Part shown: positions 5,687-13,574 of the stretch, piece by piece
Layout: every line of letters begins with the position of its first letter
Numbering within the stretch: position 1 is the first letter of the stretch
Assembly: GCA_026025795.1 (NCBI GenBank)
Contig: JAPEUG010000039.1
Coordinates: forward strand, 1 to 64,000
Length of the DNA: 64,000 bases
Origin: Thelocarpon superellum
Taxonomy: Eukaryota
Direction: 5' to 3'
Notes under the pieces: model-generated
Told to the model about the DNA's origin: nothing
Database searches by the model: none
Seen by the model: the letters and a program-made list of their open reading frames with translations, nothing else
Translations under genes and position numbers: made by a program

Positions 5687-8600
5687 ATGTCGACCGCGGC
5701 GAACAAGACCACCGCCGACGCCGGCATCCCCCCCCCCGCCTTCTCATATGCACAAGCCGCCAAGGGCCGCTCCAGCTCGACCCCCAAACAGATATCATCA
5801 ACCCGGGGGGCCCCAGTCCCTCACGCACCAGCGTCAGAGCCAAGCTCCTCTTCAGCCACCGATGCATCAGCTTTGGCGGGCACCGAGGACCGTCCATCGC
5901 GCGAGGGTCGCCCCAGCGAGCGACGGAAGCACGAAGGGGTGAATGGCACCGATGCCCAGTCCACGCCGAACGATGCTCTTCCCGCGGCGAAAGGAGCGAC
6001 ACCATTACCACAGGTACCGCCGCCGACGCAGAAGCATCCGTCGGCGCCCTCATCCCCCAGCTTTGGCACGTCTTCTACCTCGACCTTCCCAAAAGAAGAA
6101 GATATGAGCACCACGCCGAATGCATCGTCCGACTCCACGTGGGACAAGCAGTCGCAGACGTCCACTGGTGCCGAGAAGGTGGGTGAACATGGCGCGGCCA
6201 ACAAAGAGAAGGAGCGAAATCAAGGAGACGAGAAAGACCCGCCGAAATCTCTCACGGCCGCGCCGTTACCCGCCGTCAATATCTGGCAGCAGCGGAGAGA
6301 GGCACAGGAAGCCGCCAAGGCCAAGTCCGCGACTCAACCGCCACCGGCATTGCCCGCCGTTCCCAAGACCCAGAGTGGCGTGACCAACGCACCGATTCCT
6401 CAGTCCCTTTCCTCGGACAAGGAGGGCGCAGAGAAGAAGCAGGACGTGATCAAGTCCGATGCGAAGAAGAAGGGGAAGCCCCCAAGCAGCGCGGTGGATG
6501 ACGGTGACAAGACGCCTACCTCCAACACTGGCACTGGGCCGGTCAAGGAGAAGAAGAAGAGCCTGGACGCGGGGAAAGCGGTGCGCGACGAAGGTGCGTG
6601 ACCACTCTTCCTGACAACGTGGACCGTCGAGCCTGTACTGACGAGAGATCTCAGTCCCCAAGAAAGTCCCGGCCCGCCAGCGCATGCTGCCAGAGAAGGC
6701 GGGCGCGAAGGAGCCAACTCTCCCCACCGCGCCGCCCCCGGTCCAAGACGCGGTATCGTGGCCCACGCCCGATACTGCACAGGATGAGGAGAAGCGGAAA
6801 GCGATGGAAAAAGGCGACAAGGGGGACAAAGAGAAGGTCGCACCGGCCAGCGGAAAGCCGCATGGAAAAGAGAAATGGACGCCCGTGCCCTACACCCCGT
6901 CGGTCATCTTTGAGACCCAGATCTCGACCCCGAAGCGAGGTGGCCGGCTCGGTCGCGGCGGTCGAGACGGCGTCGTCCGTGGCGGTGGCAGCCATCTGTC
7001 CAATGGCAGTGTGGGAGGCGACAAGGGCGTGGCACCGTCGGCCCCCTCCCTCGGCCCGGGCGACGGGATCGATCGCGGCCGGGTGGAGGCGGGTGCCGGG
7101 AAACCATCCTATGCGCAACCCAAGCAGGCCAAGAGAGCGTCAAGCGTTGGTGTGTTTTCCTCGAAAGAGCAGCGCCGAGCGCCGGCGATTCCTATCTCCG
7201 GACGCGGTCGGGACGGTGAGAATGCGGAGCCCAAAGCCGCGGACATCATCTCGCCGACGTCGACAGCGGCAGGTAGTCGACGGACCTCGATCGCGACGCA
7301 GACGGAGCAGGCGCCCCGCTTTCGGCATGACTCCAAGATGCACACACGCTCGGATCCGACCCTGTTCCAGGGCCCGGGCAATGCCGCCCCGTCGCGATCG
7401 GACCGATATGCGGCCAACGATGGTGATACCCATGCCCATCCGAAGTCGGCGGGGGCCGAACGCCGTGCCGACGGCTCCACCCGGCCATCGGAATACTTCC
7501 GCGAGAGCGGTAATCACCCCCCGGGGCGCGACCGAGGCGACGGCCGTCCCGATCGTGGTCGCGGCGGCTTTCGCGGAGGCCGAGGGGGAAGCAATGGCCA
7601 CGCAAATCCCTCACCAACCGCGACGCACGTCTCGCATCCGTCATCGCAGACGAACAGCGGATCGTCGGGACCGTATGGATTTCCGAAAAATGCGCCCTAT
7701 GGCGCGGCCCACTTGCCGCCAACACATCAGCATCCGACTGCTGGGGGCCAGTTTGGCTCAGGCCCGTCCTCGCGCAATTATCGCGGGGCATCACGTGCGC
7801 AGACGCTCCCCAACAGCCCGATGGCGGGCCGCATGTCGGGAGGCCCCGGCACGGCGCCAGGCATGACACCGATTCAGACGCACTTTGCCCCCGTTTACGA
7901 CTACCAAGCCGTGCAAGCGATGAGCGCGATGCCGTACAGCCCCTTTGCGGAACAGTATTCGACCCTGAGCATGGTCTCCTTGCAGTTGTGAGTGATGTGC
8001 TCTTCCGACCGGGCAGGGCGACGGCTGACCAAGCGCGCGCAGGGATTACTACTTCTCGGTGGACAATCTGTGTAAGGATGTCTTCCTGCGAAAGCACATG
8101 GACTCGCAGGGCTTCGTCTTCTTGGCCGTCATTCTGGAGTTTAATCGGATCCGCCAACTCACCCGCGATATGGAGCTGGTGCGGTACGCGTGTCTGCAGT
8201 CGCGTAAGATCGAGCTACGGACCGGAGCGGACGGGATGGATCGGCTGCGCCCACGCGAGGGTTGGAGTCAGTGGGTTCTGGGCATGGAAGATCGCGATCC
8301 GTCGGCACAGAATGACGGACCGGTTCTTTTGCCGCCGCCGTACTTGCCCTTTCCGCACGAGCTGGATGTCCCCTACCTCGGTCAGGCTTACGCTAGCCCG
8401 TCGGCGATGGACGTGCCCACGGACCGGCCCGGACCGGGGCCGGAGGCTATGTATCTCCCCATGAACGGCCTCAGCTCTCCCTATCTCCCCGCACCATCGA
8501 CGCCGAGCCTTAACGGCACGCTCAACGGCGACGGGCCGCCGACGCAGACACCGCTGTCCGCCGTGGTCCCCACCTTCTCGCCCATGCCTCCCGTCGTCAA

Positions 8601-9483
8601 TGGCTCCGGCGCGTCGGCGCCGACCACGACGGCGAGTGCGGAGGACGTCTTCTCCAACACGGAGGTGGATAACCTCGTGATCGTGATGCGGAAGCATGGC
8701 TCCAGCCGACCGGACGCGGTCTTTCAGCGCGCGGGCTGTCGCACTTACTCCAACGGGTCCATTGATGAGCGCACGATTGCCGAGGCGATCGGGGGGCCTC
8801 CACCCCCGCCGGTGGTCAACGGGACCGGCCATGGTGAACCGTAAGTGCCCGAACCGCATTCGGTGGACCGCAGGAGGGATCGACTAACCATGAGCAGATC
8901 GGACGCAGACGGCAGTGTGACGGTCCAATCCCCGAACCCCATGTACGCGCTCCAGGTGGGCCTGGGAATCGAGGAGAATGCGCCGCCGGTGTTCTGGATG
9001 AAGGGCTGCGATTCGCCCATCGACTCGCTGCCGCAAAACATCTCGCACGAGACGTACGAACGATTCCGCGGTGATGCTTTGCGCCAGCGCGAGGGATCGG
9101 CGATGGGAATGTGCCACCGCGACATGGATAACCTCTATCAGTTTTGGTCGCACTTCCTGATCCGCAACTTCAACCGGCGCATGTACGACGAGTTCCGTGA
9201 GCTTGCCTTGGATGACGCGGCGCGACGACACTCGGACGTGGGGATGAAGAATCTGCTGCAATACTTTGACGTCTCGCTCAAGGGCAGCAAGGTTGTGTCA
9301 GACCTCTTGGCCCGTCACTACGTCGAGTCCGTTCTAGCAGAAGCCGGCCGCAAGGAGCGCGCGGGATTCGCCAAGCTCCAGGCGGCGTGGACCGATGCCG
9401 GCGTCAACGCCAAGAACCGGGCGAAGATCGATGCGGTGCTCACGCCCGAGCTACGCGCCGAGCTCAATGGGAAGACCGGGTGA
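5687..9483 (+). CDS. La-related RNA-binding protein (LARP1/Sro9/Slf1-like) with La motif, RGG region and C-terminal DM15-like domain; exons 5687-6593, 6655-7987, 8043-8840, 8898-9483
   Basis: La motif [27 protein letters not shown] is formed across an intron. Also present are APLPAVNIW, KEKWTPV, RGG repeats and DM15-like LYQFWSHFLIRNFNRRMYDEFRELA. Confidence 0.9.
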
Positions 9484-10436
9484 GGGAGCATGCTACAGGC
9501 CCAAGCCCTCTTCCCACCAGGATGACTAGTCCCCACCCTTCTCCCGCTCATCCCCCTCTTTCCAGCCTTTACGACACTTTGTGCGTCTGGGCCTCGTGAC
9601 CGACTACAAGAACATTCGGACCGGTGAAATCTTCGTCGTGTGCGTTGTGTGACGGCGTTTGGGACTTGTGCCCTCGGGAGCTGGTGACGGTTCAACTTTT
9701 CGACTTCGGCCTTGTCCGCGTCCACGCGGCATCTCTGCCGGACCCTTCTCCAGGGATGGTCAGGGTGACCGTGATGCTCTTCAGCCGCGTCTCTCTCCTC
9801 CTACAGACTACGCCCTTGGTGCGACGGTCGGCGAACTGTTCGTTCAGCTTTGTCGACGTCCACCTACCGCTACTCATTCACTTCCACTTCCTCCATGCAT
9901 TTTATTGGCTGGGCTTTTCCCTTGCTCCCTTTCGGGCGATCCTTACTGGCTCTCTTCTTGCACTGCAACGCCGCAGACTAGCATCGGGCGGAAAATTAGC
10001 ATTGGGCCGGGGATTGTAACACCGTACATAGACCAAACAAATTCGCTATCTTTTACCTGTAGATGTGGGATAGGAGGGTACTGAACCAAATACTTCGTTG
10101 TAGGCCTATGTTAGCCATGGAAGTTGGTGGTGGTTGTAGATTTGGTGTAATGGTCTGCCGTAGTTGACACGAGTGGAGTAGTTCGCTCACCGTAGAAAGA
10201 TCATAGACCAGACCACAATCTTCCATCCTCCACCGCTTCCATCATCTTGCATTGCACTCATCCTGACGTGATCTCACCGGTCGTGCCCCATCGGCTCCAA
10301 CTTGGTTGAGAGCTTCGATCGTGGGGGCCGCCTGGTGACGGCCATTCCACTGACCACGGCTGGAATACGGAGCAACGGCGTTGCCACGTAATGTAAGCCT
10401 TTCCTGTCCCGCGCATCGTTTTTCCTTTTGCACCGC

Positions 10437-10521
10437 ACAATGATGAGACTTCATCCACGAACAATCCAACTCCTATAGCGTCATGAAGGATTCAACCAAT
10501 CTCTAGAATTACTCTGATTGT
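10437..10521 (+). ncRNA. Box C/D snoRNA 1, dual guide: 18S A in GGUAAmUUCUAGAG (human Am159-equivalent) and 25S G in GUUGmGAUUGUUC (human Gm4494-equivalent)
   Basis: C box ATGATGA 10440-10446 and D box CTGA 10514-10517, with an ACAA/TTGT terminal stem. D guide CTCTAGAATTAC is antisense to 18S GTAATTCTAGAG. D' guide GAACAATCCAAC is antisense to 25S GTTGGATTGTTC (the D' box is degenerate). It lies inside intron 10393-10581. Confidence 0.88.
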
Positions 10522-10680
10522 CCCCTGCAGATGACTCGTTGCTCTTTGTCTCGTCCGTCTGCTCAAGCTGATCTCCACTAGGGCATTCACCTTTGTTGGG
10601 TTGGCTGATCTGGTCCATTCTCAAATCTTCGTAAGGTAGGTCTGACCATTTTCTTGGTGAGAAACACAACCCTATCCTAC

Positions 10681-10766
10681 GTGATGACCACGAGACAAGA
10701 CAAAGGAATTCCTCATTCCGAAAACATCATGTCGAATCTGTTTCTATTAGTTTCAGCCTTGTCTGA
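10681..10766 (+). ncRNA. snR41: Box C/D snoRNA 2, snR41-like (18S Gm1126-equivalent)
   Basis: C GTGATGA 10681, D' CCGA 10718, C' ATGTCGA 10729, D CTGA 10763. D guide AGTTTCAGCCTTG is antisense to 18S CAAGGCTGAAACT, and the +5 rule hits the first G of CAAGG. Confidence 0.88.
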
Positions 10767-10884
10767 TTTGACAGCACCTCGTCCACCGCTCGGAGGAACG
10801 TCAGGAGACACCGCTGACGGCCCGACCGAAGTTACAGGTACGCCTCCGGATCCTTTCTGTCTCCATCATCACCAATCCTGTTAC

Positions 10885-11007
10885 ATGAGGAAAGCTAGAC
10901 GAACGGGCGGACAGACTGTGTACCTCTTTACTCCATCCATCAACTCAAGGCGTACAACCTTGAGGGTGGTCAGTGCAAGGGCGTACTTGTTGACAAGTCG
11001 TCACTGA
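10885..11007 (+). ncRNA. snR70: Box C/D snoRNA 3, snR70/U43-like (18S Cm1639-equivalent)
   Basis: C ATGAGGA 10885, D' CAGA 10912, D CTGA 11004. Guide ACGGGCGG plus accessory TGTGTAC is antisense to 18S GTACACACCGCCCGT. It follows the snR41-like RNA, as in the yeast cluster, inside intron 10838-11074. Confidence 0.82.
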
Positions 11008-11135
11008 TATGCCGATCTTTGGACGACATGCCTGGTCGATCTGTCACGATGACGCTGACACGGGGCCCTCATAGGTAGATATCAAGTCTCTTCCGTCGTC
11101 TCGAACTGTACCACCGCGCAAGGCCATGTCATAAC

Positions 11136-11227
11136 ATGATGATCACTATTCACACTGTTTGAACCGGACACATCCATGTAACGAGTGGACGTCTGGCGAT
11201 GAACGTACCAAACACTGAAAATTCTGA
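11136..11227 (+). ncRNA. snR51: Box C/D snoRNA 4, snR51-like (25S Um2729 via D') with a second guide for the 25S Um2724-equivalent
   Basis: C ATGATGA 11136, D' TTGA 11159, D CTGA 11224. Guides TATTCACACTG and ACACTGAAAAT are both antisense to 25S GATTTTCAGTGTGAATA. Confidence 0.85.
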
Positions 11228-11505
11228 TATAATGAGGTGAGTCGGCCGACTCCGACTCGCCTCCTGTCCGCCCCGCTAACCTATGTAGCCTGATATGCAG
11301 ATGGTTCTTCATCTTGTTGCAGCACCATGACTTCAATCCTCCGTACCAAGGCACGACGCAGAAGCTAATCGTTTGCGTCCCGTCTCGCTCCATAGAATCC
11401 CCTCCAGCCGACAGAACCGCAAATGCTCAGCCAAAAAGTAAGCGGCTCTGCACTCATCCAACCCCAGCATCAGCACCAATCGAAGCAAGCGCGAAGAAGA
11501 CACGC

Positions 11506-11586
11506 ATGATGAGTGCTCACAATTCGCTGTGTTCTTTCCGAATACCCTGTGTCGAGACATTAACAATTTTCACCTTGGAGAACTGA
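11506..11586 (+). ncRNA. Box C/D snoRNA 5, dual guide: 25S GGUCUCmCAAGG (U55-like) and 5.8S GAAGAmACGCAGCG
   Basis: C ATGATGA 11506, D' CCGA 11538, D CTGA 11583. D guide TTCACCTTGGAGA is antisense to 25S TCTCCAAGGTGAA. D' guide TTCGCTGTGTTCTT is antisense to 5.8S AAGAACGCAGCGAA (one G-U pair). A perfect 12-bp flanking stem GCGCGAAGAAGA (11489-11500) / TCTTCTTCGCGC (11591-11602) is present. Confidence 0.9.
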
Positions 11587-11868
11587 TGTATCTTCTTCGC
11601 GCTGCCGTCTTCCTATTCTTCTCTCCCATCCTTGACACCCAGGGAGTGCGTGGATGAACTGTGGTAACGGTGCGTGGTGCTGACTCTTCCATAGGGCAGT
11701 GACGTTCTTTGTGGAACTTTCCTCGCTAGCATAGATCATACCTCCATGTTCTAAAAATTCTAGATAATGCCCGCTATGCTCGACGGTGATGACGATGCAA
11801 TGAAACCCAATGTGAACTCGCTCAAGACTCCTCTGGTCCAGTCCAGCCCTCGTAATTATGGCGTCTCC

Positions 11869-12954
11869 TCAGCGCCACCCTCCCACTCTTCCCTCGTCCC
11901 ATCTGTCCTTTCGCTCGCGCCTGAGATAATAGACGCGCCGCGCGTCACGGAACCGACGCACCCACTCCGCCACCTCGCGATCACGCGCCTGCCACGCCTC
12001 GCTGTGCTCTCCCCTCTCACTCATGCCCATACCAGTCCCAGCGCTTCCATGTGGCGCCGAGCCCAGGCCCACGCCGACGCCCGCACGGGCCCCGCCGCCT
12101 TCGAGAAAACTCTCCTCGAGCGCATGACACAGGCTCTCTTGCTCCGCCACGGCCTGCGCCAGGTTCTGATACAGCGCCTGCGGCGAGAAAGGCGCCAGGG
12201 CTTTATCCATCTCGGCTTGCTTATTGCGCCATGCTTGGGCCAGGGCGTGCGACTGCAGCAGATGCGTGGACGTCGTCGCGCGCGAGCGCTCCAGACCGTC
12301 GTGCACCGGCGGAAGGTGCGCGCCGAGCGCGGCGTTGACCGCCAGAGCCGACGCCAGGTTGGTGCTTGTGGTCGTCGTGTGGGATGCGGGGACCGCAGAG
12401 GGCGCGGTGGAAAGCGCCTGGAGGAGCGAGGGGGTGGAGAGGGCGTCGGCCAGATCGGCTTTGCTGTTGAGAGATGGAGTTGTTAGTACTGGCGATGCAT
12501 GAAGCGGAGGTCGGGCAAGAACGAACGATTTGGACTGCAGGATTTGGGGCAGGTAGCTGGGTCCGGGGTCCGGGGTTGACGCGGGGTGGGTGGAGCCCGT
12601 GGCCGCGTCAGGTCCTGGGGGCGCCCCGAGCTGCCCGGGGGGATTGCCGGAAGAGTGAAATGGTGGGTCTGGCCATGACTGGGGTGTTCCCGGTGCCCCG
12701 TCCGCCGAGGTCGAGGTCACGGGAAGGGGAGAGAGAGAGGACGAGGCAGGGTGAGGAGGCGGGGGCGGCGGTGGAGGGCCGGTCTGGGGGCTCTGGATGC
12801 GGCTGGTGTCCTGGCTCGAGGTTTTGGGGGGGGGAGGTGGTGGGGCGGGAGCCGGGGAGCCATAGGGTGAAGTGGACGGATTCGCCCGGAGGTGTGTGCT
12901 GTTGCGAGGACTGTAGAGAGCTGGCACTGGTGAGATGGGCGGTTGGGAAGTCAT
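11869..12954 (-). CDS. VPS37: ESCRT-I subunit Vps37-like (Mod(r) domain); 63-nt intron 12464-12526
   Basis: Pro-rich N-terminus. The C-terminal LAPFSPQALYQNL...EQESLCHALEESFLE...WVRRFRDARRVYYLRRER is typical of fungal Vps37_C. Confidence 0.8.
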   Translation of the reverse strand: MTSQPPISPVPALYSPRNSTHLRANPSTSPYGSPAPAPPPPPPKTSSQDTSRIQSPQTGPPPPPPPPHPASSSLSPLPVTSTSADGAPGTPQSWPDPPFHSSGNPPGQLGAPPGPDAATGSTHPASTPDPGPSYLPQILQSKSFVLARPPLHASPVLTTPSLNSKADLADALSTPSLLQALSTAPSAVPASHTTTTSTNLASALAVNAALGAHLPPVHDGLERSRATTSTHLLQSHALAQAWRNKQAEMDKALAPFSPQALYQNLAQAVAEQESLCHALEESFLEGGGARAGVGVGLGSAPHGSAGTGMGMSERGEHSEAWQARDREVAEWVRRFRDARRVYYLRRERKDRWDEGRVGGWR

Positions 12955-13574
12955 ATCGCAGCTGTCTGATCGCTGTCCCAGTGGTCCAGGCTGGAGCGGC
13001 ATTGCCAGGGAGCGACCCTTGATGGCTCTCGCTGTGCGTACGCAAGCCGGGAGCTTCTTCGTTGCGATCCGGGTATGAAGTACTGTGGAGGCTCCATACG
13101 GGAGCTTGAGGCTCCTGAGTAAGCTGCCTCACATGACCCACAATAGCTGTATTTTAGAACAACAGATAGCTTCTGTAGAATAAACCACCCATCTCCAGTG
13201 GAATAACCGGGGTGCGTCAGTACGAAGTAACTACGAGTAAAGTTGCTCCCGCAGTCCGGTACAGGTACGGGCTAGATAGCGAAGCTACCTAGCATCCAAA
13301 CTCGTGTGGAGAACCCTGGTGGAGAACTCCGGTGAACTCCCAACGAAAAGTACAAAGTACCGTCCCGCACTCTCGTTTAGTCCCCATCTTGCACAAGTAT
13401 TGATGAGGATTTGATCGATACCAATTGCACTTCGTCGTCTCTGTCATACTAACAAGTGTGAGATAACGTACACTAGAACGCTCAAGATCCTTTGAGGGTA
13501 AAATTCAGCATCACATCTGGGCCTTGTCAAATCCCCATTACTGCATCGCACTCGTCAATCTCTCCCCATCATGG

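Follow-up and report, generated by a model that had tools for sequence, protein, structure and literature searches.

We analyzed a 64,000-nucleotide (nt) stretch of DNA from Thelocarpon superellum (GenBank assembly GCA_026025795.1, contig JAPEUG010000039.1, positions 1 to 64,000 of the forward strand), referred to below as the window, and describe a host gene for small nucleolar RNAs (snoRNAs) that occupies about 10393-11694 on the + strand. The gene carries five box C/D snoRNAs, one per intron, and three of them, which are snR41-like, snR70-like and snR51-like, follow one another in that order on one strand. The locus is very probably a non-coding host gene that represents the Pezizomycotina version of the fungal "cluster III" (snR41-snR70-snR51). 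In all likelihood it is transcribed by RNA polymerase II into a non-coding RNA whose only useful products are its intronic box C/D snoRNAs. The three introns concerned (I, II and III) appear from their sequence to adjoin one another directly, the exons between them having zero length, and their removal most likely proceeds step by step in the 5'-to-3' direction. The features of the gene are as follows.

10393..10581, + strand: intron A, with donor GTAAGC (10393-10398), branch-like GCTGAT (10567-10572) and acceptor TAG (10579-10581); signals located by eye
about 10436-10521, + strand: box C/D snoRNA of intron A, with box C ATGATGA (10440-10446) and box D CTGA (10514-10517); located by eye
10582..10635, + strand: exon 2 of the host RNA, 54 nt, ending in CGTAAG
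10636..10837, + strand: intron I, 202 nt, with donor GTAGGT (10636-10641), branch GCTGAC (10813-10818) and acceptor CAG (10835-10837)
10677-10768, + strand: snR41-like snoRNA of intron I, Rfam family Afu_455
10838..11074, + strand: intron II, 237 nt, with donor GTACGC (10838-10843), branch GCTGAC (11054-11059) and acceptor TAG (11072-11074)
about 10883-11010, + strand: snR70-like snoRNA of intron II, with box C variant ATGAGGA (10885-10891) and box D CTGA (11004-11007)
11075..11395, + strand: intron III, 321 nt, with weak donor GTAGAT (11075-11080), branch CTAAT (11365-11369) and acceptor TAG (11393-11395); it contains the body of the snR51-like snoRNA, the nested intron B and box D
11130..11236, + strand: 5' part of the snR51-like snoRNA, with stem half CATA (11130-11133), box C ATGATGA (11136-11142) and then, in order, guides of the snR51 type, the snR67 type (after which comes an internal CTGA, 11224-11227) and the 18S-A100 type (last bases AATGAG, up to 11236)
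11237..11288, + strand: intron B, 52 nt, with donor GTGAGT (11237-11242), branch GCTAAC (11275-11280) and acceptor TAG (11286-11288)
11289..11297, + strand: 3' part of the snR51-like snoRNA, namely C, box D CTGA (11290-11293) and stem half TATG (11294-11297)
11396..11437, + strand: exon 3 of the host RNA, 42 nt, a predicted exon between the acceptor assigned by orthology and the donor GTAAGC at 11438
11438..11694, + strand: intron C, with donor GTAAGC (11438-11443), branch GCTGAC (11679-11684) and acceptor TAG (11692-11694); located by eye
11502-11589, + strand: snoRNA of intron C, Rfam family Afu_294

To analyze this arrangement quantitatively, we compared the window with orthologous loci from metagenomes. 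A search pattern consisting of box C, the snR41 3' guide and box D returned at least 105 metagenome loci, with up to 2 kilobases (kb) of flanking sequence for 80 of them and 300 bases for the other 25. Together with the window these gave 106 sequences, of which 90 were distinct over the compared stretch, and a cut-off on the sharing of 10-mers reduced them to 78 clusters. One representative of each cluster was analyzed (77 distinct metagenome loci and the window), and all counts of loci given below are counts among the matches listed.

In the window both interior exons are missing, and each acceptor adjoins the next donor: CAG/GTACGC at 10837/10838 and TAG/GTAGAT at 11074/11075, the slash marking the splice sites. 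Both junctions thus have AG/GT behind a branch site, the arrangement that defines a recursive site with a zero-length exon. The same arrangement is nearly universal in the orthologs. At the junction of introns I and II, where we required a branch-like CTRAY or TTRAY followed by AG/GT, it was found in 73 of the 76 assessable clusters, the branch A and the AG being separated by a median of 15 nt; by eye, L087 also has AG/GT here behind a CTTAC-type branch, which leaves L001 and L007 without it. At the junction of introns II and III, 49 clusters had both anchors (23 were too short and 6 lacked the snR51 anchor), and 47 of these show the junction, as AG/GT in 45 and AG/GC in 2; L022 and L038, which failed the branch filter, show AG/GT by eye. 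The spacers around the junction sites are otherwise unalignable between orthologs. The original prediction for this locus, made from the letters alone, had found no good donor after 11074; GTAGAT sits, however, exactly where 47 of 49 orthologs have AG/GT or AG/GC. The sequence GTACCA at 11108 was considered as a donor for the snR51 intron and ruled out, the orthologs having their donor directly after the AG. Two near-identical loci, L013 and L044, differ at this junction from L034, to which they are closely related: they have AG/GC, a GC donor next to a zero-length exon, and L034 has AG/GT. L001, L007 and L061 carry snR41 but have neither the AAAG/GT exon end nor abutting junctions nor the snR51 anchor; these are probably lineages outside the group that has the exon-less architecture.

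The donors of the three introns differ in strength. The junction between exon 2 and intron I could be assessed in 73 of the 78 clusters (two were too short, and L001, L007 and L061 lack AG/GT there). Exon 2 has AAG as its last bases in 69 of the 73 and AAAAG in 44; the conserved end is AAAG, and the donor that follows has G at position +5 in 68. In contrast, G at +5 is found in just 15 of 73 donors at the I/II junction and 19 of 47 at the II/III junction; weak internal donors are the rule, and the window's GTAGAT is typical for its position. The internal donors nevertheless have A at position +3, in 73 of 73 loci for the I/II junction and in 41 of 47 for the II/III junction. Because this base was not imposed by the search, its conservation indicates that the internal donors are under selection. 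A strong first donor, weak internal donors and a conserved AAG exon end together form the pattern expected if the weak donors depend on an exon end that is used repeatedly.

Beyond box D of the snR51-like RNA, the orthologs have a branch site and a YAG at a distance of 50-100 nt, to which TAG 11395 would correspond in the window; CAG 11300 and CAG 11320 are possible alternative acceptors for intron III. The sequence TGCAG is found within 8-13 nt of box D after both the upstream snoRNA (10525-10530) and the snR51-like RNA (11294-11300). After the snR51-like box D it is part of the terminal stem region, and it might be used as a cryptic acceptor as well. In many orthologs (L003, L016, L019, L023-L025, L028-L031, L035, L036, L039, L043, L045, L047, L049, L053, L066, L068, L073 and L078) the acceptor of intron III again stands directly before GTA, and a stronger second donor follows 30-50 nt further on, which suggests that there is either a third site with a zero-length exon or a choice of donors for the Afu_294 intron. 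In the window no GT follows the acceptor (11393-11396), and the 42-nt exon has seemingly been kept.

These features are consistent with a stepwise mechanism. In the first step, the AAG end of exon 2 would be joined to position 10838, placing AAG before GTACGC and producing a usable 5' splice site for intron II. Removal of intron II would then place the same exon end before GTAGAT, and removal of intron III, as far as TAG 11395, would finally join exon 2 to position 11396. The intronic half of such a 5' splice site, GTA followed by variable bases, is weak by itself, and at each step the re-used AAG would complete it. Lariat debranching followed by trimming is the established route by which intronic snoRNAs mature, and here each lariat would be debranched and trimmed to the snoRNA protected in its ribonucleoprotein, one snoRNA per lariat. 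The order of removal is supported by data from other species: among 42 spliced expressed sequence tags (ESTs) reported by Luo et al. (2013, PLoS One 8:e58547; PMC3596301), 18 had lost intron I only, 14 introns I and II, and 10 all three, and no EST had lost II or III while keeping I, from which its authors conclude that the introns are removed one by one in the 5'-to-3' direction. The present analysis shows the anatomy and how far it is conserved, and the splicing order comes from the ESTs of those species; Thelocarpon superellum would be expected to behave in the same way. We consider the whole reading, cluster III anatomy together with stepwise splicing, very likely to be correct.

A further intron has to be accommodated. 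Intron B is nested both in intron III and in the snR51-like snoRNA, where it separates the 3' guide from box D, and it would have to be spliced before intron III or independently of it to bring guide and box D together. To count it we set aside, from the 78 representatives, 29 without the snR51 anchor or with too little sequence, 4 without the A100-type guide as defined and 1 too short after the guide, which left 44 assessable loci. An intron of 46-76 nt with a GT donor, a branch site and an AG acceptor is present at this place in 41 of the 44, and in all 41 any one base and CTGA (N-CTGA) follow the acceptor directly. It is displaced by a few bases in one locus (L029) and absent from two (L008 and L038), in which guide and box D are contiguous. 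By eye, L015 also appears to lack intron B and has a variant guide. In L022 and L029 the intron has slid by two or three bases, in such a way that the spliced guide and box D would be unchanged. L066 has, besides intron B, another intron-like insertion (GTGAGT, a branch site and CAG) between its snR67-type and A100-type guides, and would have a second intron in one snoRNA.

The assignment of box D downstream of intron B can be evaluated from the terminal stem. In the window, CATA (11130-11133) pairs with TATG (11294-11297), and these segments flank box C (11136-11142) and box D (11290-11293). When the 13 nt before box C were compared with the 14 nt after box D in 42 loci, the mean complementarity was 5.81 base pairs (bp), against 4.41 ± 0.16 bp for permuted partners, and none of 1000 permutations reached the observed value. 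The terminal stem thus covaries, which supports the box D at 11290-11293. Judged by its sequence, the snR51-like RNA has the terminal stem characteristic of a box C/D snoRNA, and this stem requires the removal of intron B. The 5' part of the RNA was aligned by eye with 48 orthologs. Its 18S-A100-type guide (11224-11236) reads CTGATATAATGAG in the window and CTGATTTAATGAG in almost all orthologs, a difference at base 11229, and the window's A at this base is otherwise found in L047 only. The change reflects either a matching change in the 18S ribosomal RNA (rRNA) of the lineage or a tolerated mismatch.

Several points weigh against stepwise removal of introns I to III as described above. The donor GTAGAT is weak, and the 3' end of intron III at TAG 11395 is assigned in the window by orthology alone. 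The junction calls were made automatically, and at the second junction of L005, at least, the script took the less likely of two candidates. AAG 10831 is a possible alternative acceptor for intron I, since its distance of 14 nt from the branch A is a usable one. The Neurospora crassa homolog of snR51, CD6, a 76-nt RNA, is annotated as "Exon" within cluster III by Liu et al. 2009 (PMC2780460), who thus interpreted this anatomy differently, and Luo et al. could not exclude a single donor used with three alternative acceptors (PMC3596301).

A single donor of this kind, GTAGGT at 10636, would pair with any of the acceptors at 10837, 11074 and 11395 and leave the internal GT sites unused. It would produce the same EST classes (I, I+II and I+II+III) as were reported (PMC3596301), and the infrequency of G at +5 in the internal donors (15/73 and 19/47) is in keeping with it. 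Acceptors alone, however, need neither the GT that almost universally follows the internal AGs nor the A at +3 (73/73 and 41/47), and a lariat holding several snoRNAs would need additional endonuclease cuts, given that trimming is known to be exonucleolytic. Intermediates detected in Debaryomyces hansenii and Yarrowia lipolytica by reverse-transcription polymerase chain reaction fit stepwise removal equally well, and do not decide between it and a single donor (PMC3596301). We consider the single-donor scheme very unlikely.

The original prediction had placed a different mechanism at the start of intron I. It proposed that the snR41 intron, taken as 10636-10831, is removed first, so that GTAAG (10631-10635) is joined to the T at 10832 and forms a perfect GTAAGT; this would act as donor for an outer intron that extends to 11288 and releases snR51, an arrangement of the [D5,6] stwintron type. 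In stwintrons (spliceosomal twin introns), which occur in fungal genes, an internal intron interrupts a splice signal of an external one (PMC8469720). All of the motifs named for this scheme lie where they were placed, including GTAAG directly before GTAGGT, AAG at 10829-10831 and GTACCA at 11108, and the letters allow the split donor: no AG comes between the branch site and AAG 10831, which is at a distance of 14 nt from the branch A, and the next base is T. Destruction and regeneration of a 5' splice site has also been documented in a snoRNA cluster, cluster II of Candida (PMC5033589).

The orthologs nevertheless speak against it. The letters permit a split [D5,6] donor solely if AAG 10831 is the acceptor. 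The AG directly before GT, CAG 10837 in the window, is the acceptor that orthology indicates (73 of 76 clusters). The tandem GTAAG/GT, whose lack of conservation the original prediction had named as a refutation, is not conserved: the window alone among 73 loci has GT at positions -5/-4, and the conserved exon end is AAAG. Given the conserved AAG/GT, the tandem needs only this GT, which would arise at random in about 1 case in 16; on the loci compared, the tandem donor is no more than chance, and the GT at 10631-10632 is a lineage-specific accident. An AG between the branch site and the abutting AG is found in 21 of the 73 loci, and several of these are AAG, but none is accompanied by an upstream GTAAG. 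CAG is normally preferred to a nearby AAG, which also counts against the scheme. The branch and acceptor assigned to the outer intron (11275/11288) belong to intron B, whose own strong donor, GTGAGT at 11237, had been overlooked and has a GT counterpart in 41 of 41 orthologs; the proposed external intron is left without a branch site and acceptor of its own. An outer intron ending at 11288 would moreover sever the snR51-like RNA from its box D (11290-11293) and stem half, both of which would be left in the exon. Because ordinary donors are available at 10636, 10838 and 11075, no split donor is needed. We regard the stwintron scheme as extremely unlikely. The fallback offered with it, that the sites are zero-exon AG/GT recursive sites, fits both the conservation of the junctions and the published description of the cluster (PMC3596301). 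The general idea of an ordered release of three snoRNAs from one compound intervening sequence stands, and it is the split-donor route to it that falls.

According to a third alternative, the snR51-like RNA is encoded in an exon: 11075-11236 would stay in the host RNA, intron B alone would be removed, and the snoRNA would be cut or trimmed from the host RNA. The "Exon" annotation of CD6 and the weakness of GTAGAT both speak for it, as do the 14 of 42 ESTs that kept intron III and the processing of the yeast cluster without splicing (PMC3596301). Yet 47 of 49 loci have AG/GT or AG/GC where introns II and III meet, box D is followed in the orthologs by a branch site and YAG, and intron III had been lost from 10 of the 42 ESTs (PMC3596301). 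Exon encoding by itself is highly unlikely on this evidence, and the exon-encoded and lariat routes may both be at work.

A further question is whether splicing of intron B could determine which of two forms the snR51-like snoRNA takes. A short form, matured without splicing of intron B, would end at the internal CTGA (11224-11227) and use the snR67-type guide just upstream of it. A long form would arise where intron B is spliced first, joining the box D at 11290-11293 to the 18S-A100-type guide and giving a longer RNA with a different target. Several observations fit this idea. Both the snR67-type and the A100-type guide are present in 25 of the 48 aligned orthologs, and Rfam's model of snR67 can be aligned over its full length, reaching as far as the internal CTGA. 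Two loci, L050 and L060, have only the short-form layout, an snR67-type guide and then CTGA, with no A100-type guide and no intron B there; their snoRNA appears to end at the counterpart of the window's internal CTGA. The cloned N. crassa CD6 has a length of only 76 nt and is listed with a single D' guide (PMC2780460). The idea was not found in the part of the published cluster III account (PMC3596301) used here, and we consider such a switch doubtful, although conceivable. If it were true, the timing of intron B splicing relative to that of intron III would decide which rRNA site is served.

The names used for the snoRNAs had been proposed in the original prediction, and they are borne out to different degrees. 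The snR41-like RNA matches Rfam family Afu_455 with 71.5 bits against a gathering score of 48, and the same stretch weakly matches snR41. For the snR51-like RNA, a search of Rfam at a relaxed threshold gave sub-threshold matches only, to snR67 (30.3 bits) and snR51 (28.6 bits), over 11132-11229/11242. The snR70-like RNA has no Rfam match at E up to 10; among the matches listed, a snR70-type guide core, GGGCGGAC, is present downstream of snR41 in all but one sufficiently long locus. The rRNA targets of the snR51-like guides are presumed here from those of yeast. The name snR70 is likewise putative, taken from the gene order in Luo et al. 2013 and from the guide of the yeast RNA.

The RNA in intron C matches Afu_294 with 64.8 bits against a gathering score of 43, with snoZ101 below threshold. 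The upstream snoRNA (about 10436-10521) has no Rfam match at E up to 10; it shares exact 9-mers, located in two guide-like blocks, with 49 of the 52 orthologs for which at least 350 nt of upstream sequence was available. By position, the upstream intron matches the U45-associated intron A and the Afu_294 intron the U55-associated intron C of the published cluster (PMC3596301), and these names are positional only.

The host locus occupies a gap of roughly 2.2 kb that separates two protein genes. Upstream, at 8059-9483 on the + strand, is a gene for a La-domain protein with a LARP1 HEAT region; downstream, at 11869-13002 on the - strand, is one for a Mod_r-domain protein of the ESCRT-I Vps37-like family. 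Open reading frames across the locus (10654-11007 on the + strand, 11082-11393 on the - strand and 11314-11586 on the + strand) were judged spurious because they run through the snoRNAs.

It is instructive to compare this anatomy with that of known systems. Luo et al. describe cluster III of the Euascomycetes as intron-intron-intron, with the two interior exons missing in all species studied, an intron B that holds no snoRNA and separates box D of snR51 from its 3' antisense element, and U45 and U55 snoRNA introns inserted on either side of the cluster (PMC3596301). The window has the same gene order, the same two missing exons, a snoRNA intron in the corresponding position on each side, and intron B, and, as far as the published description was available for comparison, it shows no difference of substance; its own features are the GT at -5/-4 and the single base change in the A100-type guide. 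Our survey adds the contrast in donor strength and the conserved AAAG exon end, neither of which was seen in the part of the account consulted.

Stepwise splicing with regeneration of splice sites is also known outside the Pezizomycotina. In the Candida clade, Donovan et al. (2016) describe snoRNA polycistrons with nested or recursive splicing and exons of size zero, one or "negative"; removal of one intron regenerates the next 5' splice site, so that the order matters for snoRNA release, and Mitrovich et al. are cited there for ordered splicing in C. albicans (PMC5033589). That case concerns cluster II (snR57-55-61) in the Saccharomycotina, where a G truly belongs to two introns (PMC5033589). 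The introns of the window need no shared base.

With regard to stwintrons, the series GTAAG, intron and T could formally make such a donor in the window, and intron B, lying inside intron III, is truly nested; but intron B interrupts no signal of intron III, and the split donor is neither conserved nor needed. Searches of the literature for stwintrons with snoRNAs, and for recursive splicing with snoRNAs in fungi, found nothing that links stwintrons proper to the release of snoRNAs.

In the long introns of Drosophila and vertebrates, an AG/GT ratchet site serves first as an acceptor and then, once ligated to the upstream exon, as a regenerated donor. The segments in the window differ from these in being about 200-320 nt long and in each containing a snoRNA, and their zero-length exons likely serve to provide one snoRNA per lariat, not the removal of a very long intron. 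In yeast, the snR41-snR70-snR51 snoRNAs are released by endonuclease cleavage. The Saccharomyces cerevisiae unit has homologous snoRNAs in the same order, but there they lie in an unspliced primary transcript (PMC3596301).

The original prediction knew of no use of stwintrons for the release of snoRNAs. Juxtaposed snoRNA introns with no exons between them, stepwise splicing and nested splicing that regenerates 5' splice sites are, however, already in print (PMC3596301; PMC5033589). The adjoining introns, the order in which they are removed and the intron within snR51 were published in 2013 for the same cluster in the same fungal group, and donor-regenerating nested splicing in snoRNA clusters in 2016. 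The present analysis corrects the map of the locus by adding the donor at 11237 and the box D at 11290. Gene-prediction pipelines that require a non-zero exon length will mis-annotate loci of this kind. Across 77 independent metagenomic loci, the cluster III architecture is nearly universal, and the strong first donor, the near-invariant AAAG end and the weak internal donors are the signature expected of an exon end that is re-used in recursive splicing.

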